64,000 nucleotides of DNA from Pelagomonas calceolata (Eukaryota), in NCBI GenBank assembly GCA_918797485.1, contig CAKKNE010000006.1, positions 1,736,001 to 1,800,000 of the forward strand. Direction: 5' to 3'. Under the pieces are notes generated by a model. The model was not told the origin of the DNA. It did not search any database and was given only the letters and a program-made list of their open reading frames with translations. Shown one piece after another: positions 7,811 to 63,206 of this stretch. Position 1 is the first letter of the stretch; every line of letters starts with the position of its first letter. The translations under genes and the position numbers were made by a program.

Positions 7811-8167
7811 AGTACTAGAAGTAGTTTAAGTGAGAACGGTCCACTGGCAGCTGCGTATATTTCGCCGTGATTTACGCGTAATTTGCGGTGCTTATTAACA
7901 AAACCCGCACACATGCAGCTAGAGATCCTAGAAAGGACTTTTGGTAGCTACGCAGCGAGCCAAAAGCAGCACGAGCGCGGCGCATAAGCGTGCACATTAC
8001 TCGCAACAGCATGCAACTGGCAACTGGCTCGGACCTGACAACGTCACGTTTGGGGCAGCCACACTATGTGCGAGGGTGTGATCTGAGGGTGTGATCGGCG
8101 CAAAAGTCTCAAAACGGGTTGGCTCTCTGGACTTAAAGCAGGACACCAATTCAGCTAGTGTCTATTA

Positions 8168-9296
8168 TTATACTTTTGACGCAATGTTGGCGTTAAAATA
8201 TTCGTGCTTCATCGCATCTGCAGCTGAGCAGCGTTGCAACGGATCATAGGCAAGCATCTTCTCAAGTAGACTGCGACCAGTACCATCAATGCGTGGTACA
8301 ACATCGGAAAACGACCTTGGTGGAGGATACTGCATGATTTTGGGGTCTCTATTATAGTCAGGGAGCTCGACAAGTCCAGGATAACTTTGCTGTATGGGCG
8401 ATCCTAGGGTCTTGAAGATGCGCTTCAATTGGTCAGATTCTGATGTACCCGCCTAAGGTGCCGGTTGACTAACTAGGTTGTTTCATAAGGCACGGTCTGC
8501 ACAAATAGAGGTCTCGACGTAGCCATTTCTGCAAAAATACAGCCAATAGACCAAATATCAACAGGTGTGGAGTATGTGCGAGAACCCATGAGAACGTCTG
8601 GTGCTCGGTACCACAGCGTGACAACCTAATTAGCATGTTAATCATGATTGAATATCATTATTCGCACCTCATGCGTATAACTTCGGACCGGAATACCAAA
8701 GGCCCTGGCGAGGCCAAAGTCAGCCAGCTTCAATTTTCCTTCGCGATTTATGAGAAGATTTTGGGGTTTTAGGTCACGATGAAGAACGCGGTGGGTGTGG
8801 CAAAACGCAACGCCACACAGGAGCTGGTACAGAAAGCTTTTCAGGATCGCGGTCTCGAGGCCACCATCGCATATATCAAGGTACTTCTTAAGGTCTTGGT
8901 CCAGATACTCAAAAACCAGAGTCAACCGACGATCTGTGTGCACAACATCGTAGAGACGGACAATGTTCGGATGTTGAAGCTCCTTTAAAAGGGATATTTC
9001 CCGGATTGCCTATGATGTCTTCTTTGGTCTAATCTTCAGCTTTAACTGGCTGGAACACACAGTCGACGGTATGCCTTCGTCTTCTGCCTCTAGACGAATT
9101 TTCTTCAATGCTACAATCTCACCAGTTGCCTAAATCGGAAATTGATGCTAACGCTGTGGTGGCGCTGGCAGCTACTTTGTCTGTTGCTTTGTAAACAACA
9201 CCATATGTACCTATGAGCGCTCATAGAAGGTTGTGATGGATAGAAGGTTGTCATCAAACCTTCTCCAATTTTGTCAATTCGTTGATAGCGATCCAT
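8168..9296 (-). CDS. CDKA: Cyclin-dependent kinase, PSTAIRE (CDC2/CDKA type), 6 exons
   Basis: Spliced reading [84 protein letters not shown] introns of about 50 nt. Confidence 0.93.
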
Positions 9297-28476: not shown

Positions 28477-28810
28477 GTTTCCTGCCGCATCAGGCGACCT
28501 ATCTGGCAGCCCATCGGGTACCCGGCCGCGCCTACGTATCCGCCCCACGCCATAGGTTCCCAAGCCCCCCTGGGAGACCAAATTACCAGCATAGAAGCGA
28601 GTTTTGATTTTTCAGTCCAGAGGTCCCCGAAATACCCGCACGTTAGGCCCCAGATGGGCAACTTCGCGACCGCGTCTCGCCGCGAAAGTGACCCCTTCCC
28701 CCCAGCCCGGTCAGGGGGCGTACAAAGGGACTCTTTGGGACCCCTTAGCCAAAATCGCGCTTGGACAAGTGGCTGGGAACTCGAATCTCAAATTTGGGGT
28801 CCGCCCCCGT
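28477..28810. repeat. Dispersed repeat family C (high-identity inverted copy at 37378-37711)
   Basis: About 335 bp near-identical in opposite orientation. The ORF track gives paired spurious peptides MPIWGLTCGYF.. at 28473-28661(-) and 37527-37919(+). Confidence 0.92.
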
Positions 28811-34857: not shown

Positions 34858-37165
34858 ATGACATGGGTGTCACGGTCTCTTCGCCGACTTCTTATATCTT
34901 CCTCTGTGTACCGTGCGAGCACGTCTTGTCCGAACCAGTGTAGCGGCCACGGCGAATGCACAGCCGAGAACGTGTGTTTGTGCGATACTGGTTGGGCATA
35001 CTATGCTGACTGTTCTGGTCGTGCGGCGACGGCGCCCTTATGGGGTACACTTATTATTTAGTGAAGAGTACTCACAGGTCTTTGTCCAATTGCTACTGCG
35101 TGGGTCGACAAGGCTAGCGCTCCCGGCAGGGCGCATGGTGACATGGAATGTGGAAACATAGGCGTATGTAATCGGAACGACGCATTTACCTGCGCACAGA
35201 TTAGTTATGTTGATTGCTTGCGTGATTTTGGTTTTTAGGGGAGTTGCTCATGCCCACCTGGTTTTACGGGTGAAGCTTGCCAGCGCTGTCCATCCCCAGT
35301 GTTACTAATTTATCTAGATGTTAGATGCCAATACCGTAGTTGAATGTCCTCAAGAGTGCAGCAACTATGGCAACTGCATCACTATGCACCATGCTGCACT
35401 AGACTACGGCCCTGGGCAGGGCATGACCCAGCTTGATGATGTGAATGACATAAAGGGCCCTTTATACACCAATTGGGAAGCAGAATCTCTTATGATGTGC
35501 GCTTGCGATTGGGGGGTATTTGGGCCTGAGTGTGAGGCACGCATGTGCCCCAAAGGTTTCGATCCTCTTCTGAGAAGTACTACGACTTACTATCGCGAGA
35601 TTAACGTGACAACAAATTCAACAGCAGTAGGATCAAGCATCAATGGAACGTTCGTGATGAGTTTCAATGGGTTTGACTTTGAGTTCAACGCCAATGCAAC
35701 ACTCTTTGGCGAGGCAGAATGTGAAGCAGCCTGGGAATCGCTAGACAATGTTGAGCAAGTAGTTTGCTTTCGTGGTGCCATAAATCAAGCAGGGGGTGCT
35801 ACTTACAACATTAAATTTCTAGCTTGGCCTGCAGTCCCAATGCAGAACAATATCTTTAGCCACGAGGGCAATCCACCGCTCACAGCTTTTACGTGTGACG
35901 CATCTGATGCCAGAGTCTGGCCACGTGGCGGCGGCAACGTCGCTGCATGTCATGTTGAGGATGTTGCGAATACTGATATTCGCGAGTACAAGTTCTGCAG
36001 CGGCCGCGGTACCTGCGACTTTTCTACTGGATCATGTAGCTGCTATGCTAATTTTGAGGGTGTTGCTTGCGGCAGCAGTATTGCCACTATTTCAGAGGAG
36101 GGCGTTGATGTGTTGCTACTGTATGCAACTGAGAATTCATTTCAAAATACTCTGCTGAAGTTAGACGCTACTGCTAATCCCTCAGACTCGTTTAATTTTC
36201 TTGAGATTGTTTCTGGTAGTAGTGAGGTGACCATGTTTACAATCGAAGGGGACGGGGATATCACGGTTGCTAAGGGCGATGTGAAGATTCTCACGGGCGA
36301 ACTATCGTTATACTCCGGTCTTCGGATCATTGATGGAGGCGCAAGTATCACAACAGGGGGTCTTCGCGTCCTCTCCGGAGGTACTACGATCAATGAAGGT
36401 GGCCTAAAAGTTATTGGCAATACGCTTTTGTGGGGCAATGTTTTAGCTCACAACGGATCATACATTTTCTCCTCGAATGCAAGCGGACACAACGATGGAA
36501 GTATTATGGAGGTTCGTGCAACACAGGACGCATTTGCTGGTGCTGTTCTTGAAATTGGCGCAGACCGCAATAGGTCAGACTCTTTCGACTTATTTCGCGT
36601 AACAGTAGACAACGGACCATCTTCTCGTGAAGTTTTTGCTATCACAGGTCAGGGTCGCACCACAATCAAGCATGGCGGTCTCACCGTGACGGGAGCTGCT
36701 GTTGTCAAGTCTGGCGGTCTACTAATTGAAGCCGGTGGCATAACTATCACATCTGGTGGTCTGACTATCTCCAGTGTTGGTATTACATCTGCCGGCTCCA
36801 TCACTGTGACCACTGGGTCCATCACGGCTCCATCGATAATCAGTACCGGCGGAGTATCTGCTAGCAGTTACACAACCACTTCAGACGGACGTTACAAGAC
36901 AAATGTCACTTCCCTGCGGAATCGTGCTGCTCGCTTGCTGGAATTAAATGGCGTGAGCTTCCAATGGCGAGGCGATTCTGGGTTCGACAAAGAGACTCAT
37001 TTTGGATTCATTGCCCAGGAGGTGGAGCTTGTTTTCCCAGAAATTGTCAGAGAAAGCAGTTTTGGCATCCGTTCTTTGCAGCTCGAAGCGATTGCGCCCC
37101 TTCTCGTTGAAGCCTTTCGCGCCTTGCACCGCCGCTTGACCATTCTTGAACGTAGACTTCGTTGA
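34858..37165 (+). CDS. Secreted EGF/tenascin-like (mastigoneme SIG/Ocm-type) protein with Gly-rich beta-repeat region and C-terminal peptidase S74 (intramolecular chaperone) domain, 4 exons
   Basis: CPNQCSGHGEC..DCSG|LCPIATAWVD..ECGNIGVCNRND|GSCSCPPGFTGEACQR|..CPQECSNYGNC..CPKGFDPL..CSGRGTCD; then (GGLxIxxG)n repeats; then SDGRYKTNV..LNGVSFQW..GFIAQEVELVFPEIV..IAPLLVEAFRAL and a coiled-coil end. Confidence 0.85.
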
Positions 37166-37377: not shown

Positions 37378-37711
37378 ACGGGGGCGGACCCCAAATTTGA
37401 GATTCGAGTTCCCAGCCACTTGTCCAAGCGCGATTTTGGCTAAGGGGTCCCAAAGGGTCCCTTTGTACGCCCCGAGACCGGACTGGGGGGGAGGGGTCAC
37501 TTTCGAGGCGAGACGCGGTCGCGAAGTTGCCCATCTGGGGCCTAACGTGCGGGTATTTCAGGGACCTCTGGACTGAAAAATCAAAACTCGCTTCTATGCT
37601 GGTAATTTGGTCTCCCAGGGGCCCTCGGGTACCTATGGCGTGGGGCGGATGCGTAGGCGCGGCCGGGTACCCGATGGGCTGCCAGATAGGTCGCCTGACG
37701 CGGCACGAAAC
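37378..37711. repeat. Repeat family C, inverted copy
   Basis: Reverse complement of 28477-28810. Confidence 0.92.
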
Positions 37712-46800: not shown

Positions 46801-48311
46801 TTGGCGCCCTATGCGAGCAGAGAGATAGCAAAGCCTATACCTTCACCTACCTACGGTACGTACCGTAGGTACCGTAGAGATACCCGTACCGTACCGTACC
46901 GTACCGTGGTACCTACAGACTGCATTTTACCCTGCCGCAATGAACAAATTCACGCGATATCCAACTTGAACGCTGTGAGGCGCCACCAGCCGAAATAGGG
47001 CCGAAATAGGGGCGGGAAGGGCTACAACGACCTACAACGACCCACAACGACCCCCTCCCCCTACCACCTTGGCCACATTCACGGTCCCCGCCCGATTTCG
47101 GTTGCCGTGAGGCTCCGCAGGGTTTGGTATCGTAGCGCAGCTCAGATTGCGGCTTCTGAAGGGGTTGTATTTGTCCTCAGTCCCAAAAGTCGTCGATTTA
47201 TTTATGTGCCGCGTACACCGAGAACCTCGAATCGGTCTCGCGACGCTAAGACGGACACTAAGATACGCCCAGATGACCGTAGCTTCGCCCGATCGTACAG
47301 GGTAGCAGCTGCGCGGAGGACAGCTTTGCGCACGCCCGGCGAGATTTCGTGCGTACGAAGGTGGGGATTTGCCTGTAGCAGCTGGATCTTGGCGCTACTT
47401 GCGTTTTTTTTTTGCTGAAAAGCAGAGTATCCCGCATTTCAGGGCGCTCGGGCAGCCCGAGTGATACGGCTCAAGCGGGCGGCCATCCTCGCATCGTGCG
47501 GGATTATCTCGTCTATTCGGCCTTTTCTCGTAAGCCAGGATGGTAGGAGGTCGAAGTGCTGTCGAATGTCGATAATGCACTCCGTGCGAGTGTAAGACCA
47601 GAGGGGTACGCACCTTTGGGAATACCGTGACAGCCTGAGTGGCTTAGACCAGCTCTTAGACCGTCCACGGCGGGAGACCGTGACTCCGGGGAGAGCCACC
47701 TTAAAATACACTCCTAGTTTTGTTTAACGGTGTTTACGGTTTTATTTCGAATCATGTGTGGTGTGTATGAGTGTGTATAGGGCCGGGTATAAAAATAGGG
47801 GCCCGGTCACGGTGGGGGTGCGAACTTGTATTTCGTTCTCTAATCGCACTGGCACTCCGACTCCCAGTAGGAGACTCGGAGTCTGGCGACTACCCAGGCT
47901 ACTCGCCGCGACGAACTTCGATCTATCTGGTTGGATGCTTGCGATTTATCGAAGTGCCACGGGGTGCTGTGGCTCTAAGGAAGATTCAAAGAATGAACTT
48001 GAACTTTGTTGAACCCGTGTCCCGCCTGGGGGACTCGGAGTCACGGCCCAGTCTATGCCTCTATATCTATATTACCTCTGGTTTAAGTTTAGTCGAGGGC
48101 TGGTTCTCGGTCCACTATATAGTGACCGGAGGAAGTTGGATAGAGGAAACGGCGCTACTAGATTCGGCGCTTGAGGCCGTTTATCATCGCAGTTATGCTA
48201 GATATTCAACGTCAAAGTGCCTTCCCATGACTCAGAATTGTGGGAATCAACGCATATATTCCAAGCATAAAGTTTGTGTGCTCATTCCGCAATCGCGCTG
48301 ATGTACATTTG

Positions 48312-53257: not shown

Positions 53258-56200
53258 TCAGAAACCAGTGTTGGAGTCAGAGAAAAAAGACCCAAATGCG
53301 CCGAACAATGATTTCGCGCCAGTTGAAGGGTCACGGCCATCAACTGTAGTGGGCTGATGTGGAGACCTGGTACCGATCGCACCGCCAGGCGCGCGCACTT
53401 CTGGCAGCCTTGGTGGACCAGCAGGTGCAGCGAGGCCGGGCCTGGCGGGCCGGCCGAAGAGGCAGCTTAGGCGGGCAGCGATCTCATCAGCGCCGCCCTC
53501 CTCACCACTGGCCACTGCGTGCACGACATCAGGTTGCGATGGGACCGGCAAGCATGGGACTGGCGCGGGCTGCGTGACCCGCCAGGCGGAAGGAGCAGCC
53601 GCGGGTGCACGTTGCCACAGGGCCTGACCGTCGGACGTTCCTGCACCACTATCCTGGACAGGCGATGGCGCACGCAAAGTCAATGGCGATGATGTGGTGA
53701 CGCGCGTGACTGTCGGCGGCGCACGGGGCCTGATGGTAGCCGGCGTGGCGGGCCGGCCAGCACGATCGGTCGATGGCGATGGACGCGTGGTTGGCAGCAT
53801 GGCGCCCCCGTGCAACGCAACAGCCGATACGCGACGCTTTCGCGCCACCGCCGATTCAGACGGCGCAGATTCGGCAGGTGGACGCCGCGACGCACGCATA
53901 GGGGGCGGCAGCGGTGAGGGCTGAAGTGGCGAGACAGCGGGGACATCGGAGCCCTCAGACTCATCGGACGTGGAATGCCGGTCCGGACTGGGTGGCGTGG
54001 ACGGCACCGGGGGTGCCGAGGTGCCAGCGTCATCAGGCGTGTCCGCATGCCCCGCCGCGCGAGCGGCGGCCTCTTTCTTACGGCGCTGCTTTTGGCGCTT
54101 CGCCTTCTTTTTCTCGCGTGCTTTGGCCGACCTCGCCTCGCGCTCAGCCTCCTCAGCCTCGAGCTCTTCGACGAGGCTCCGCCGTGCAGCCTCTGCCGGG
54201 CCGTCTGCAGCTACTGGCGCGGCCGCGACGTTAGCGTCAGTTTCGCCTCTCTTTCCACCGTTTCCGTCGCATCGCGCCCGCTCGCGCTGTTTGAGCAGGA
54301 TCCTGAGGCGTGCGTGGCGCGCGGCCTGCGCAGGATGCACTGGTAGGGGTTGGGACGGAGCTGTATGCGCGTGCGTCCCCGCCGCCACGCGCGAGACTCA
54401 AGCAAATTTTGGGAAAGGTACAACGGCGTGCGGCGCTGCAAGCTCGCCTTCCGGTCGCGTGAGCAGTCAGCGAGCGGCGCACGGTAGTCGGCCACAAGAC
54501 GGGCGGCAGCGTCAACGTCGCCACGCGCGACAAGAAGCGCGACAGCCGTATCTCCTCGTGCGTTGCGCGCGGCAACGAGCTCGGGAAGGCGGTCATCAGC
54601 GCGTGCGGCATCCAGGACGGGCCAGAGCACGTCGAGGTGCCCCTTTCGTGCGGCGAGGAGTGCGGCCTCGCCCGACGGCGGCGCTCCAGCGCTGATCAGC
54701 GCGCTCGCAAGCTCAGCGCGGCCGGCGCCTGCGGCAAGCGTGAGCGCGTCCTCACGTGGCGTCGCGCCGCGGACGGGTCTTGCAGGGTCCGCACCAGCGC
54801 GAAGCAGCGCGCGTGCTGCACGCGATGCGCCCTTGGCGACCTGCGCGCATTCGTGTTGGTGCCACTCGCGCACGATTCCGCTTCGCCGCGCTTTTTTGCT
54901 GGTTCGCGGCAGGCGAAGATGAGTGACACGCGCGCCAGCTCTGATCGACGGCGTGCCACCCTCCTCTCACACCGAGTGTGCGCACGAGTTAGGCAACTGT
55001 GCTTTGCATTCAACGCCGGGGTGCGGACGGCAAGGTGCAGCGCCGTCTCGCCATGAGCATCCTCGGCGTCGATGTCAGCGCCGGCGGCCGCGAGCACAGG
55101 CACAATTGCCGCTGCCGCTGTGTCTGCATCCGCGCGGTGACCGCGCGCGCACGCGAGGTGCAACGGTGTTCGTGCCGAGCCAGCGGCGACGTCGCGGTGC
55201 GCTGCGTCGGCGCCTGCACGCAGGCACCGCCGGACCGCGTCCGCGGCGCCCGTACGCGCGGCCGCGAGCAGGCACGCATCGGCGTCGCTGCGCGCGATAT
55301 CCGTCGACGACACACTGACAGTGACAGTCGCGCGCACGCGTAGCGCGCCGTCGGTGCCGATGAGGTCACGCGCACGCAGCTCTGTGTGCGCAGCAAACTT
55401 CGGCCAGCCCCAATCCTGGACCGCGGGTGGCGGCGCGGCGCGGAAGACCTGTGTTGCCCATTTCGCATATCCACGTGACGCGTCGCCCGACGCATGGTCG
55501 ACAGACATGGTGAACCTGCGGCGGCGGCAGCGCAGCAGTTGGTACAAGCGTGGGCGCATATGAGGGCGGCGCAACGCACGTCGCGTGTTTCTGCCAGCCG
55601 AACGGGAGCGTGGCGGCGTCGCGAACCGAGAGGTAGAGTGAAACGTGCCCGGCATTGTCTGCACCGTCCCCGTCGAGAAAGTAGTACAAAAGCCATCGGT
55701 TGCCCGCCGCGTCAACGAAGCCGGCGTCATGGTACATGCCCTTGTGCGCGCGTGCGGCGTCCGACCTGCGTGCCGTCTCGAAATCGGGCACGACCCAGCG
55801 GCATACTACGGTCGTTGGACGTGCCTGCGGCGCCCAGCCGCCGGCAGCTGTCGTACCACCGCCCGCTGCGCCCGCCGCACGCGCGGCTGCCTCGCCGGAG
55901 CCGCCGCCGGCCTCAGCCGGGGCCGCCGGCATCGCCGTGCCGCCAGAGCTGTTGGCGGCGCCCGGCGGCGGCCGTGGAGGTGGCGGCAGCGCGGCGACGA
56001 GGTGCGTGATGGCGACTCGCGTGCCGCTAGCCTCTGTCGCACCAGCGACCACCGCACGGTTCGCCGCCTCGGCAGCCGCGAAGCGCACGCACGCAGCGCC
56101 GCCGCCGGCGACGAGCGCACACGCCTCGACGGCGCCGTGCGGCTCGAGCAGCGTGGCGACATGGGCGCTGGTCGCTGAGACCGCAAGGCCCGACACAACG

Positions 56201-57023
56201 ACGACGCGGCCTGCCGGTCCTGCGCCGCGAGAAAACCGCGCGAACGTCGTCCCCAGAACGTCGACAGCGGCGGCGCTGACGGTTTTCGCAAGGCGCGTGG
56301 GAGACGCAGCAGCAAGCGTGCGCCGCAGCGCACGCGCCGAGGCGTCGTCATCGCCGTCATTGTCCACCGCGCGCGCCACCGCGGCAAGCACGTCTTCCGA
56401 AGCGTCGCGCGCAATGACACTCGCGCTACCGGCAACGGCCTGACCTTCCGCGTGCGTCGCAGGTTCCGAAGGGACACGTCCGGGATCTTCCAGGTCGTTC
56501 CCTGTCTCGGTGGCAGCGCCCGGCGCAGCCGCGCCTGGCGCGGCGGGGCTCGCTGCCGAACGGGTCTTATGCTGCGCCGCAACGGGGGCGCGTGCGTCGC
56601 TGTCCTTTTGCGGGAGTGGGACTCTGTGTGGATATCAACCAGTGAGTTAGGATTATGCGGGGACCTTCGTGAACCTCCACGCCATCGAGCAGACGCGGTG
56701 ACCGGGACAACGTCGTGTCGATAGCGCGGACCTCCACGCCATGCGTGCGGCGCTAAAATTTGATTTCCACACAGAGAGCCATACCGTACTCGGCCGGGCT
56801 TCTCCTCCGCTACGATGACGTCCTGGTCGCGCAACACAAGAAGTCGCGCCGTGTGCTCTGCGTCGATGACGTCGCCGTCCAGGAGAAAGGAATACGCGAG
56901 ATTGTCGCGCCTCCTACTGTATTCCCTAAACATCACGCCTAGCTTCTGATCGAGGCGCAGTTTAAAGTGCGTGTTATCTTTTGATTTGACATCGAGGACG
57001 CGAATCGTCACGTACTGTGCCAT
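53258..57023 (-). CDS. Multidomain protein: SUMO/Rad60-like UBL, RRM-like, MATH, ankyrin repeats, coiled coil and low-complexity tail (multi-exon, high GC)
   Basis: UBL exon (HFKLRLDQKLGVMF..FLLDGDVIDAEHTA..LRDQDVI); RRM (VVVSGL..LEPHGAV..ACVRFA); MATH (RWVVPDF..GNRWLL..HVSLYL..DWGWPKF..DGALRVRATV); ankyrins (RTPLHLAC, GETALHLA|VAKG). Exon joins inferred from GT-AG phase; joining of the UBL exon is less certain. Confidence 0.7.
56624..56774. mobile_element. Introner-like MITE with ~15-bp terminal inverted repeats inside intron 1 of the minus-strand gene
   Basis: Termini CTGTGTGGATATCAA ... TTGATTTCCACACAG and an internal repeated cctccacgccat. On the minus strand the terminal CAG provides the 3' splice site (intron 56784-56624, phase 2). 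Confidence 0.8.
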
Positions 57024-57954
57024 CACCACCGTACCGGGAACGTCGCCGAGGAGTAACAATCTAATTAAGTCTAGCGCCAGCTCACGCGATTGATGGATGA
57101 CGACTGCGCACAGTCAGCAAATGGCTATGCGCAAGCGGTAAGTCGCGCACAGCTGAATTCAATAGTGAGCTAGTTATAACGCACTAGATTTTCCAGGGCT
57201 TTGTTACATGCATGTTTATCTTTCGGCGCCCGGAGCTATATAATAAAAATACGCACCACATGCGGAAAATTCATCCCAAAGCCCCAATGTATACGCACAT
57301 ATACCCGCGGCGTCTGGTAGATATGTATATGGTACTCTGTCTTTTTATCGTCGATGAAGTGTGGGCACGTTGCACAAGGTAGTTACAGTTGCTTCTTCTT
57401 GGGTTCTTGCGTCTTGAGCGTGGGGAAAGGGAATCTTGACGGGCTCGGCCGGTCTACAACGGCGAGCCGCCGACGGGGCACGGCTGAGGCACGTTCGCAT
57501 GCGCGTCGAACATGACGAAGCCGCCGTCGGCGATCTGCACGAAGATGTCGTCGCCGCCGGCGGTGTGGGGCACCATTTTCTCGATGCGACTTTTCACTAC
57601 TCTGAGCCTGAGAGGTCCGTAGGAGGCCCTGACGTCTCTACGCGTCCGCTGGCACGAGGTAGCTGAGAGTATCGGCGAAGTTTAGGTAGGCCTTAGGATC
57701 ACTTGACGCAGAACATACCGTACCTAGAGGGAACGGCAATATAACGGACGCGGCAATATAAGGGACGGCCCGGTTAGGCAATATAGGACTACTCTGGGGG
57801 ACTCAGATGTATGGGAGATGGCTCCTGGCTGTCCGGCCGCCTTCGCTTCTCCGCGCTGCTGTGTGTGCTGCCTGTGTACAACAAACAACGAACCATACTC
57901 TTTAGTACGCGAGGATGTTTGCATAGCGGCACCTGCTAGCAGACAAAGAGCTGC

Positions 57955-60312
57955 ATGTCCGCCCCTGCTCCGAGCCGGCGTTCGGCAGCTCTCGCCTTAG
58001 AGCAGTTGACTGCGGAGATACGATCCGAGCTATATCTTCTCTTGGATGATGTGGGTGGTCAAATATGCCTGGTCCTGGATCGCGGCATCGGCGGACAGCT
58101 GGATCACGTCGTGCCTGGCGGTGCAGAGGCACTCCGGTCGCACGGCGTCCGTTTCGTGCGCTCACTGCGGCCAGAGCTCGACGCAGTGCGCGAACACCGA
58201 GTTGTGTATCTCGTCCGTCCGACGGTTGCTGCGATGATGCTGATTGCTGGCCACGTGATGAACGAAAACATGGCCGAGGTCACACCGCGACGGTTTCACG
58301 TCTTTATGGTGCCGCGGACCACTGTCCTCTGCACACACGTGCTTGAGGAAGCGGGCGTTCTGCCGCACGTTCGCGTCGGCGCGTACCGCCTCGATGCCAT
58401 TGCGCTCGACACCGACGTACTCTCGCTCGAACTCCCAGACAGCCTGCGCGAGGTCGCGGTCGATGGCGACCCGACAGCACTCGAGTGTGTTACTCAATTT
58501 CTGCTGCGTTTCGAACAGCTTTACGGGACACCGCGTGAAGTCCGGACGTTCGGCACAGCAGCGCGTGGCGTTGCTGAGCGCCTCGCGCGCGCTGACCTCC
58601 GGGCCGAGCGCGCGCGCTGCCGCGCGCGCAGCGGCGGTGATGGGGTTGCTACCGCCGCGGGGCCGCGCGACTTCGGCGGCGTGCTGCCACAGTGCAACCT
58701 TAGCGACGCGGCTGATGCGCGCGCGCGCCGCGACGTTGACACGTTGGTGATTATTGACCGACTTGCCGACCTCGTCACGCCCATGGTGACGCCTCTCACC
58801 TACGAGGGGCTCGTCGACGAGGTGATGGGTGGCATCCACCACGGCTGTGCGCGCCTACCCCGCGCTGTTGTCGCGGATGATGCCGATGAGACAGCTTCCG
58901 CCGCCGCTGCAGACGCCGACGGCGACCGCGTCGCCTACGCGCTCAACTCACGCGATGCGCTCTACGCCGAGGTCCGCGACCTCAACATCGAAGAACTCGG
59001 CGCTCGTCTGGGCGATCGCGCCAAGGCGATACGCGCAGCGTGCGACACAGCGTAGATGTCCAAGTTCGGAGATTATCCCCGATTTTTGTGGCTTCAGCGA
59101 GATGCCCTGACCCTTAGTCCCAATCGTGTCGAGAGGATTCCCTTAGAGGCCGGTTTCGTACAGGTATGACGCATTCCGCGCCCGCCGCGACGCGTCCATC
59201 ACAGAGATCCACGACTTCGTGAAGCGCATCCCGGGCCTAGCGGCGGCGTACCGGAGCCTCCAGACGCACATCCGCCTCGCGGAGTGCGTCGCACGCGCGA
59301 CAGATGCACGCGCCTTCCGCGCACGATGGCATGCCGAGCGGACTTTCCTCGAGGGCGAGCCCGCGTTCGACGTAATCGATGACCTCCTCGCGACGCGAGA
59401 GCCGCCATTCTCGCTCCTTCGCCTCGCGTGTCTTGCGTCGCTCACGACGGGCGGCCTTCGCGCCGCGCGGCACGACGCGCTCCGCCGTGGCGTACTGCAG
59501 ACGTATGGCTTCGAGCTCCTCGGCACGCTCCACCACCTGGAACGCGTCGGCCTGCTCGCACGTGCTCGCGACGCGACGGCGGCAGGCCTCGTCCTCGGTG
59601 GTGGCGGCGCCCGCACGCCCTTTGCCGCACTTCGGCGCGCGCTGCGCCTTGTGGTCGCCGACGTTAATCCACGCCAGCCGAGCGACGCCGCATACGCGAC
59701 ACCCCGGCGTGAGGCGCTAGCTGTCTTCACTCAAGTTGCATTCAATTCGTAGTCGGCGCCCCGTGCCGGGCTCCCTGCACTGCGCGCCTATACCTAAGCG
59801 GACCCCGGATGGGATATTGCACTGCCCAGACTGAGGGGGACAGGCGGAATTGTCACCGACAGATCGCATTTGCACAGGTTTCCTCGGGCTATGCGCCGAT
59901 CTCAGTCCGCCTCGTCGAAGCGATCGCCGCGCCGGATGACGCCGCACTCGCTACGGCGCTCCCGCAAGTTCCCGGCCTCCCGCATCTTGCATATGCACCC
60001 CGTGCGTTCTCGCGCGAGGAACTTGGATGCGCGTTCGACGACGCCGGGGCGGGCGTGCTCGCCGCCGGCGCGCTGCACCGTGTTTCACCCGGGTCACCAG
60101 CGAGCCCCGGTGCCAAGCCCGTTCTGGTTGTTGTTTTTGTTGGAGGAGTGACGTACGCCGAGATTGCAGCGCTGCGCCTGCTTTCGCGCCGGCCCGACTT
60201 TCCATTCACCGTGCTAGTTGCTGCCACCGCCGTGATTAACGGCGCCGGGCTCCTCCAAACTCTCGTGATGGAAATGGAAAATAGCCTGCAGAAAACCCAT
60301 GCTACAGCCTAG
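57955..60312 (+). CDS. VPS33: Vacuolar protein sorting 33 (Sec1/Munc18 family), 3 exons, high GC
   Basis: VVYLVRP, FMVPRTTVLC..LEEAGV, LDTDVLSLE, LVIIDRLADLVTPMVTPLTYEGLVDE, LYAEVRDLN, SLQTHIRLAE, LQTYGFE, SGYAPISVRLVE, VVFVGGVTYAEIAALR. Confidence 0.93.
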
Positions 60313-60976
60313 CCTAGCAATCGTCCATTTGAATGAAGGAAGTTAGTTTTAATTTATTAATTAAGCGGGACCTGAGAAAAGGAACAAGCTCCTAAAGCGC
60401 CTTCATCCTGCTTGGGGTAGGATGCCCAATCGAGCTTCAACTCGGACACGGCGATAAGGTCACGGTCACGTAACTTGAACCGTCAATGAACGATAGATGA
60501 TGACAGACACAGACGTAGCATTTTTTACACCTTTCGATATTTTAGAGGTCGATTAAGCCCCATTTGCTGCGCTCACAGGACAACCGACCTCTGATCTCCA
60601 AAATGATATAAAAAACGACAAGTAGTATATTTATAAACTTGGACGCTCTGAATGTCACGGTGACGAATATATTAATAATGCGCAACCTATATGCATGATC
60701 GCTAACCAGGTGAAGATAAACCTTGGTTCGCACCAACAGTATCTCATCGGCGTCGCCATGGCAAAACGACACCCATGAGGAAACGACAATCAATGAATCA
60801 TGATGGCCTTCAATTCAACTTGTGCCAGTGACACTCAAACCGCGCGCGGCCCGGGCCGGGTAGGGCGAATTGAACCTAAGCGCTCGAGAACTCGTCACGC
60901 ACTTTCACGGAGGCCTTTAAAGTAGGTTTTGGGGTCTCCTGGGCCGGTGGGCCCGCCGTCGCTGTCGCCCGCCCAT

Positions 60977-62354
60977 CGAGCTGGACCTTTAAAGGTCCAG
61001 CTCGTATAAAACCTAACCCGCACGTTACGCAACCCTAACCCGGACGCGAACCCTAACCCGCACGTTACGAAAACCCGCGCGGCTAACCTGATTTATATAA
61101 TACGAAATTACCTGATAAACCCGCCACTTGTCATTTCGGCGATAGTATGCCGAACCTACGGACTGTGAATGTTAAATATATAGTTGGTAGGTTCGACATT
61201 CGACAATTACCTGGTTAACTCGTCGAATGTCACTTCGGCGATAGTTTGTCGAACCTACGGACTGCGAATGTTAATATATAGTTGGTAGGTTCGACATTCG
61301 TCATTTCGGCGATAGTTTGTCGAACCTGCGGACTGCGAATGTTAAATATATAGTTGGTAGGTTCGACATTCGTCAAATGTCATTTCGGCGATAGTTTGCC
61401 GATAGTATAACTGACGTTGTCTAGTAGCCATTCTGTCTTCACAAATGTTGCTCCCACAACTCCCGTCGCGTCTCTAAACGCGGTAATATCCATGGGAGCA
61501 TAACCGTCCAAAATATCGTCAAAAATAGATCTATCCACCCGTTCTCCTGACTTTAGTTGGCGAAGGATTCCCTCACGACTTTTGGTCTTGTATTTCATTG
61601 TTATCTCCATGTCCTCGTCATCACCTCCTCCGTGGGCGACAGCAATTGCTTCGGTTAAACTGTACTTAACCTTAAAGTATTTATTACTGGTAGTCTGCTT
61701 TTTCTTGACTATATTTGTCAAGGTGACGTAAATTTCATTTGGCACCTCTTCCTTCTTCTCAAAGAGGTAATCCATGAGTTCCCTGTTTTTCGTGTCGATT
61801 GGATCAGCCATCTGAACGTGACGTGAAGTTATCGCTAGACTTTTTGGCGAGTATGTGATGTGTTGGTACTGAGGAAGGCCTCTGCCCGGAGGACTTTTGA
61901 GATATATTAACATTCGCAGTCTGTAGGTTCGGCAAACTATCGCCGAAATGACATTTGACGAATGTCGAACCTACCAACTATATATTTAACATTCGCAGTC
62001 CGCAGGTTCGACAAACTATCGCCGAAATGACGAATGTCGAACCTACCAACTATATATTAACATTCGCAGTCCGTAGGTTCGACAAACTATCGCCGAAGTG
62101 ACATTCGACGAGTTAACCAGGTAATTGTCGAATGTCGAACCTACCAACTATATATTTAACATTCACAGTCCGTAGGTTCGGCATACTATCGCCGAAATGA
62201 CAAGTGGCGGGTTTATCAGGTAATTTCGTATTATATAAATCAGGTTAGCCGCGCGGGTTTTCGTAACGTGCGGGTTAGGGTTCGCGTCCGGGTTAGGGTT
62301 GCGTAACGTGCGGGTTAGGTTTTATACGAGCTGGACCTTTAAAGGTCCAGCTCG
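60977..62354. mobile_element. Non-autonomous foldback-type element, 1378 bp, with 426-bp TIRs (60977-61402, 61929-62354) and 4-bp CCAT TSD
   Basis: The arms appear to be exact reverse complements. Each end is the palindrome CGAGCTGGACCTTTAAAGGTCCAGCTCG. CCAT lies at 60973-60976 and 62355-62358. Arms contain CCCTAA-like units and ~71-bp subrepeats. Confidence 0.93.
61380..61811 (-). CDS. Orphan 143-aa cargo ORF inside the foldback element
   Basis: Uninterrupted, intronless, AT-rich ORF MADPIDTKNRELMDYLFEKKEEVPNEIYVTLTNIVKK... filling the spacer. Its last codons and stop lie inside the left TIR. No transposase motif recognised. Confidence 0.6.
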   Translation of the reverse strand: MADPIDTKNRELMDYLFEKKEEVPNEIYVTLTNIVKKKQTTSNKYFKVKYSLTEAIAVAHGGGDDEDMEITMKYKTKSREGILRQLKSGERVDRSIFDDILDGYAPMDITAFRDATGVVGATFVKTEWLLDNVSYTIGKLSPK

Positions 62355-63206
62355 CCATTGCTCTCTGATAGTGTACTACCAGTAACTTGAGGTAATTAAT
62401 AGATAGATAAACAAATAACATGCCAGTGAAATTGAAACTTGAAGTAAAGAAGGACCCGGGCACGGGGACCGTGACGCTTCCCCTCTGGGCAACCCCGCGG
62501 CGGCCCCCGATGCGCCCCTGACGCTGCCGCGGTATTTCGGTTCAATACGGCCTTACGTCGCACCCTAAAACTGTATCCTTGCCTCTCCATACATCAGAGA
62601 TATGAGGTCCGGAAATCGGCATAGCTCCCCCACAGCTGGTAGTATTAGTCTTGTTGGAACCGTGACCCTCTGTATGATCGATAGACCGCCTCCTAAAACT
62701 TCTTCTGCCGCAGACCGCGTCTCCAGCGGACCCCATCTTGTTGAGCTTTAGTTGAACTGTATGAAACCGTTGTTGCGGGCTGAAATAGAACATTAGGCAG
62801 AGGAGTGGACACAAGCGAGCCAAAGTAATGCGTTAGCCGTCGAGCGGCACGCGGGTTCGTGTCGTTCCGCCTCGAACTTGAAAACGAACTCAGCCTGAGC
62901 CTGCCAGTAAGGCGCTTGAAGGGACTCGGATTTGCTCGGACAATCGGGAGGTCCGGCCACAGAGTACACGCCTCCTCTTCCTATGCAGCCTTTCGGGTGG
63001 CCTTGGCGCATCAAAACGGAACCCTGGTAATCAAATTTATACCCAACATTATTTTGGCCCTTACTATGTTTTTGGTTGTATCCGCTGATACCTACGGTAC
63101 TTGCTGGTACCGTAGGTACCGCAGTACCAGTATTGCGAGGTATGGAGAGGTATATGTAAGAAAGAATTGCGGCTGTTTTATGCATGCGTTGCGTTCGTAA
63201 TTAGGC

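Follow-up and report, generated by a model that had tools for sequence, protein, structure and literature searches.

The window, i.e. the whole 64-kb stretch of DNA that was analysed, harbours a 1378-bp element with perfect terminal inverted repeats (TIRs), which probably derives from a Polinton-like virus (PLV) as a non-autonomous form and owes its insertion to a viral integrase. The ends of the element, its target-site duplication (TSD), the corresponding empty site, a truncated gene in its interior and the virus-like context in which relatives of this gene occur were observed directly.

Architecture and insertion site of the element

The element is bounded by two identical arms of 426 nt each (60977..61402 on the + strand and 61929..62354 on the − strand), which are 100% complementary, and its termini are CG..CG. 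Each arm is tipped by the same perfect palindrome of 28 bp (60977..61004 and 62327..62354), for which the left copy is predicted to form a single-strand hairpin of -14.0 kcal/mol. It is the longest perfect palindrome within the window, where four others of at least 16 bp are present (16, 16, 16 and 24 bp). Further inward, each arm contains three telomere-like CCTAACCCG units (61009..61064, + strand, and 62267..62322, − strand), starting at arm positions 36, 58 and 76, and all six matches to CCTAACCC in the window fall within the element. The identical 426-bp TIRs with a perfect palindrome at each end, as well as the three telomere-like units inward of it, had been claimed in a first-pass annotation of this DNA and are borne out here.

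The inner part of each arm is occupied by subrepeats. The left array (61122..61402, + strand) comprises three full units and 24 nt of a fourth, while the right array (61902..62225, − strand) is 27 bp longer and extends beyond the perfect arm to 61902. An array of subrepeats of ~71 bp, as described earlier, is thus present, but the spacing is not a uniform 71 bp: successive starts are separated by 99, 71 and 79 bp. An internal inverted repeat allows the 71-bp unit to fold. A search against Rfam gave three matches, every one far under the gathering score. The subrepeats and the telomere-like units are probably protein-binding sites; no support emerged for a telomere function of the CCTAACCCG units. 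The GC contrast with the surroundings is weak, with a GC content of 0.45 for the element and 0.51–0.53 for its flanks, yet 0.43 for one neighbouring host ORF.

At both sides the element is flanked by CCAT (60973..60976 and 62355..62358, both + strand), a duplication that stops at 4 bp without further extension. In three of four wild seawater RNA runs (three studies) the site is crossed by one contig that contains a single CCAT and no element. The contig matches the window up to 60972 and picks up again at 62355; as a separate small difference, 3 bp immediately upstream are missing from it. The skipped segment ends in CC..CG, i.e. not in splice sites. The single CCAT in this wild empty allele implies that the 4-bp duplication is a true TSD and that the site is polymorphic. 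The CCAT duplication had been read from the sequence, and a search for empty sites in other strains had been proposed along with it; the empty allele of the wild samples agrees with the original reading. The further claim of a recent, non-autonomous insertion is likewise supported.

In all three host DNA runs, short-read contigs connect either flank with the adjoining terminal palindrome and both arms with the interior. At the element termini and at the junction between ORF and arm, neither loose ends nor joints are recorded in listings from which some records are filtered out. These runs may come from the assembly's own strain. The arm contigs have 1.3–2.3 times the depth of the interior, a depth that is not equivalent to copy number. 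A second copy of the element's ends is not apparent in any of the three runs, and nothing points to further copies of the element in the host strain.

The left neighbour of the element is a Sec1-family gene, and the right neighbour presumably resembles CYFIP. Their transcripts run towards each other and terminate at 60932 and 62426, as seen in one stranded RNA run of which ~6 in 100 was read, such that the element occupies a gap of ~115 bp between them. Elsewhere in the window, a light-harvesting gene has fucoxanthin-chlorophyll proteins as its best match, which places the host among the haptophyte or ochrophyte algae.

A number of other repeats and compositional features were observed in the window. 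Within the 3′ part of the Sec1-family transcript lies a motif of 45–50 bp (60540-60592) that recurs in several near-identical copies at other places in the host genome; five loose-end groups in each of the three DNA runs reflect such copies, and polyA RNA contains a further copy in abundance. The motif has no match in Rfam. An inverted pair of 334 bp with 96% identity (28477-28810 and 37378-37711), with a weaker match at 2037-2200, is probably a small dispersed repeat. Older intergenic repeat pairs, 72–77% identical, are located at 7212-7814/42309-42932, 3672-4019/34476-34789 and 28202-28476/33899-34127, and a perfect 24-bp palindrome is located in a TACCG-rich array at 46848-46871. The GC content is 0.60–0.70 at 54001-60000 and 0.45–0.50 in the first 35 kb, with the element situated just beyond the GC-rich block.

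The truncated gene and its virus-like relatives

The interior of the element contains a truncated ORF of 143 aa (61383..61811, − strand), of which 136 aa belong to a viral accessory gene family and the final 7 aa are read from the left arm. The homology breaks exactly at the boundary of the left arm (61402/61403). Full-length relatives are 159–167 aa long, and the window ORF aligns through residue 137 of a 159-aa relative, lacking the last 22 aa. The statement in the first-pass annotation that no transposase is encoded holds, as no transposase domain was found in the element, but the interior is not empty in view of this 143-codon ORF. Between the start of the ORF and the right array lies a unique spacer of 90 bp (61812..61901), which is unmatched in the virus-like loci described below. 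In the stranded RNA run mentioned above (~6 in 100 read), no sense-strand reads cover 61428-61803, and the antisense depth over the ORF is below 3, compared to 140–300 for the left neighbour.

Relatives of the ORF were identified by 11 matches among 23 candidates (one of which is the ORF itself) and by 17 in a representative library. The family has no match at cut-off to any Pfam, PHROG or NCBIfam family. An alignment search of prokaryote genomes gave no relatives, a scan with a back-translated motif pattern gave no matches, and in viral contigs a narrow alignment gave none and a broad one gave one. The closest relatives, with 90–94% identity, are located on contigs of at most 2.2 kb without known gene context. 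Seven of the relatives are truncated, and their tails were compared with the arm: P0014 matches, with the same junction as in the window (from which it may not be independent), P0009 shows a weak match (reached by 4 of 300 shuffles, in one of seven tests), and the other five show nothing.

The nearest relatives with gene context, at 56–63% identity, are encoded in five loci obtained from 159 candidate stretches in a metagenome scan with the ORF. All five are either the contig L001 or syntenic with it, and the interior of the element is thus homologous to a gene of PLV-type genomes. L001 spans 20.5 kb of a 21-kb contig and is open at both ends; L002–L005 are syntenic with its middle part at 74–88% DNA identity. 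L001 encodes a DUF5906 helicase-primase (E 4e-14, with Pfam and PHROG hits), an S74 fibre chaperone (E 6e-13) and a 2OG-Fe oxygenase. Its match to an rve integrase is weak (E 0.003, below cut-off), with DDE-type motifs present. A motif scan revealed Walker A/B ATPase motifs along with motifs of PolA-like and R-H-Y recombinase-like type, whereas neither a pPolB nor a protease motif was found in a contig that may be incomplete. The ATPase and integrase are called on motifs. No relatives of the ATPase and integrase were found in phages.

The putative capsid protein of L001 has 392 aa. Its structural model is poor (pLDDT 38), with a best Z of 6.0 that is tied with non-viral β-sandwiches, and superimposes on a poxvirus scaffold and the PBCV-1 capsid with an rmsd of 4.5–4.6 over 164–166 residues. 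All eight VIA rows aligning at least 159 residues, among the 50 matches listed, are double-jelly-roll capsid or scaffold proteins (Z 4.6–6.0), a range that by itself would prove little. The best rows by probability in Foldseek, obtained with the same poor model, include a virophage capsid and poxvirus scaffolds. No relatives of the candidate were found in viral contigs, phages or PDB sequences. The gene set of L001, i.e. a capsid-like protein, packaging-ATPase motifs, a primase-helicase and an rve integrase, is that of a PLV. The absence of a protease motif and the 392-aa capsid candidate, both of which distinguish L001 from the EMALE virophages, make it PLV-like and not virophage-like. In DNA, L001 is ~75% identical to the window ORF and has a different upstream region; L001 is therefore a relative of the element and not its parent. 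The arms have no match in L001–L005.

Several other features of these loci were noted. Near the relatives of the ORF, accessory genes vary between near-identical flanks, like swappable cassettes, and are set apart by a common AT-rich intergenic motif. Upstream of the helicase-primase, at L001 14934-15508, two direct repeats of ~300 bp with imperfect inverted repeats form a possible origin or end junction. By eye, a host ORF in the window (35318-37165, + strand) presumably has a C-terminus like an intramolecular chaperone domain of the S74 type, following EGF-like repeats.

Related copies in wild samples

Contigs from wild samples suggest that several derivatives of one parent exist in the wild, and that gene and ends travelled together more than once. 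Each of these derivatives is represented by a single contig of depth 3–6 from an RNA library. In a contig from the wild run X19, the arm continues past the palindrome, beyond which lies another, GC-rich flank; this constitutes a second insertion site with an unreadable TSD. Contigs from X15 and X19, belonging to two studies, share a subrepeat that is joined to a different interior. In an X15 contig, 73 bp of the outer arm are joined to a sequence with two collinear motifs of the ORF; this two-motif pattern, which was chosen after seeing the data, has one match in the window and none in 100 shuffles. A further X15 contig spans the ORF, showing 8 differences over 427 letters; it takes in 9 bp of the left arm as well and diverges upstream of 61820. 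An X16 contig crosses the junction between ORF and arm without any difference. A pattern scan with a 24-mer taken from a wild inner junction gave no matches. High depth of wild runs over the telomere-like units, in 31-bp pieces, was treated as originating from telomere repeats of other organisms.

Origin of the element

The element behaves as a non-autonomous TIR element and can probably be assigned to the palindrome-ended PLVs as a derivative. It shares the end traits of palindrome-ended PLVs and virophages: TIRs of several hundred bp, a palindrome at the TIR tip beside the TSD, and a short TSD within the rve-type range of 3–6 bp. Genes for capsid, ATPase, replicase and integrase are absent between the TIRs, where one truncated accessory ORF is found, so that the element is at most a derivative and not a complete virus. 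A full-length genome with these ends was not found, the terminal palindrome having no matches in viral collections and prokaryote genomes, and the link between ends and virus is therefore one that we infer. A scan with a 20-mer of the subrepeat gave no matches, and no known transposase was found alongside the element's ends. In view of its palindrome-tipped ends, the wild empty site and the truncated viral gene, the element is likely the reduced, helper-dependent form of a small DNA virus that integrates, and not an ordinary transposon. The first-pass annotation had proposed a derivative of an undescribed transposon or integrated linear replicon. The ends do look like those of hairpin-ended linear replicons, but "undescribed" probably does not apply, as the ORF points to PLVs and such ends have been reported before.

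Palindromes in TIRs beside TSDs are described for virophage subtypes 1, 2, 5 and 6 and for PLV subtype 4 of Halocafeteria seosinensis (10.64898/2026.07.28.741278), and the element shows the same layout at its ends. In both systems the order at both ends is TSD, palindrome and a TIR of several hundred bp. The same preprint ties the palindromes to non-pPolB replicases and RVE integrases, proposes hairpin priming while calling for tests, and notes gene-poor fragments that keep TIRs and TSDs; these fragments may include ones as small as the 1.4-kb element. The palindrome has 28 bp in the element and 52 nt in virophage subtype 5 of Halocafeteria. The element further differs from the Halocafeteria viruses in its size of 1.4 kb, its single truncated accessory gene and its fucoxanthin-chlorophyll algal host, as well as in the empty site and second site seen in wild samples. 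TSDs are mostly 3–5 bp in EMALE virophages (PMC8547959) and ~4–6 bp in PLVs (PMC12220804). The mid-GC EMALEs of Cafeteria burkhardae resemble the element and L001 in having TSDs of mostly 3–5 bp, a primase-helicase and an rve integrase with a tyrosine recombinase, and no pPolB; the main text of that report mentions neither palindrome nor hairpin (PMC8547959).

In the proposed mechanism, an L001-type PLV that lacks protein priming would copy its linear genome from fold-back palindromic ends. Internal deletion, or copy-back of one end, may have led to the observed arrangement, in which a gene stub lies between one end and its perfect inverted copy; the longer right array would be compatible with both routes alike. 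The rve integrase of a full-length virus would have joined the element to the chromosome with a 4-bp stagger, leaving the footprint that is seen, and both integrase and replicase would be supplied by a co-occurring full-length virus. Copy-back (snap-back) defective genomes of hairpin-primed DNA viruses, e.g. the parvoviruses, consist of an end, a gene fragment and a perfect inverted copy of the end, as in the element. They differ from it in that parvoviruses are single-stranded and have neither an rve integrase nor a TSD.

That the 1.4-kb form itself moved is somewhat favoured over the collapse of a full-length provirus in place. More tentatively, hairpin-ended PLVs of marine algae might spawn a family of end-only miniature satellites that use the replicase and integrase of a passing virus. 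If true, such satellites would be the viral equivalent of MITEs or of copy-back defective genomes, spreading through wild algal genomes, and the 1.4-kb copy would define the minimal set of cis signals that hairpin-primed copying and integration require. The element bears on the question how linear ends are copied in those PLVs and virophages that lack a protein-primed polymerase, for which a single report of a hairpin-priming model was found in the literature (10.64898/2026.07.28.741278). It adds a second host lineage with the TSD-palindrome-TIR layout and an exact integration footprint of 4 bp with a matching empty allele, and, at 1.4 kb, provides a natural substrate of a size suited to direct assays. 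Viral remnants may also be present among the TIR repeats of protist genomes that are labelled "foldback" or left unclassified.

Among the known transposon families, Sola elements have a 4-bp TSD. Membership of Galileo was rejected in view of the TSD of 4 bp instead of 7 and the lack of a transposase domain. Ginger1 has a fitting 4-bp TSD but TG..CA ends, and Maverick/Polinton elements have a 6-bp TSD, AG termini and a pPolB, unlike the 4-bp TSD and CG termini of the element (PMC6839031).

The most viable alternative, although rather unlikely, is a foldback-type cut-and-paste transposon of unspecified superfamily that captured a viral gene fragment, with the palindromes and subrepeats serving as transposase sites. 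Galileo-type elements typically have long, internally repetitive TIRs of variable inner extent and short non-autonomous copies (PMC3573991), and the term "Foldback" used in the first-pass annotation is indeed apt for the shape of the element, though not beyond it. That the arms are unmatched in the viral sequences searched, and that parts of them are also found with other interiors in wild contigs, would agree with such an origin. However, Galileo is described as having a 7-bp TSD, a P-family transposase, many copies per genome and no viral cargo (PMC3573991), and the mismatches in TSD length and termini with Galileo and Ginger1 argue against this reading. So do the absence of another copy of the ends in the three host DNA runs and the viral, non-host nature of the cargo, while the second wild junction sets the arm against apparently the same gene (as judged by the pattern chosen after seeing the data).

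An origin from the hairpin termini of a giant virus, or from a mobile element residing in its genome, with a host or viral enzyme carrying out the insertion, is improbable. TIRs and terminal hairpins are known from giant viruses (PMC12747079), and a member of the ORF family occurs in a giant-virus bin. This member is a distant relative, however, with 35% identity, a GC3 of 0.20 compared to 0.47 and a long separate branch, and the arms have no match in its bin. In an unrooted tree of 27 rows, which carries a long-branch warning, the window ORF is placed among the L001-type sequences, apart from the giant-virus copy (branch 94/89). Moreover, a clean 4-bp TSD requires an integrase acting on both ends.

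It is very doubtful that the palindromes are protelomerase targets, cut and sealed by a tyrosine-recombinase-like protein of L001-type viruses. L001 does encode a 357-aa protein (7982-9055, − strand) with R...H...Y motifs in recombinase-like spacing, and a recombinase-like gene is found close to the relative of the ORF in L001, L002 and L005. This protein, for which three close relatives were found, has no match in Pfam, NCBIfam, PHROG or PDB, and its model, with a pLDDT of 35 and no fold match, is too poor to inform. In mid-GC EMALEs ordinary tyrosine recombinases adjoin rve (PMC8547959), and no literature was found that links PLVs with protelomerase. Furthermore, a resolved telomere carries a half site, whereas both ends of the element carry the whole palindrome.

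Finally, an assembly artefact or chance inverted duplication can be dismissed as extremely improbable: no single contig spans the whole element, but all four junctions occur in independent contigs of the three DNA runs, and the wild empty allele lacks exactly the element.
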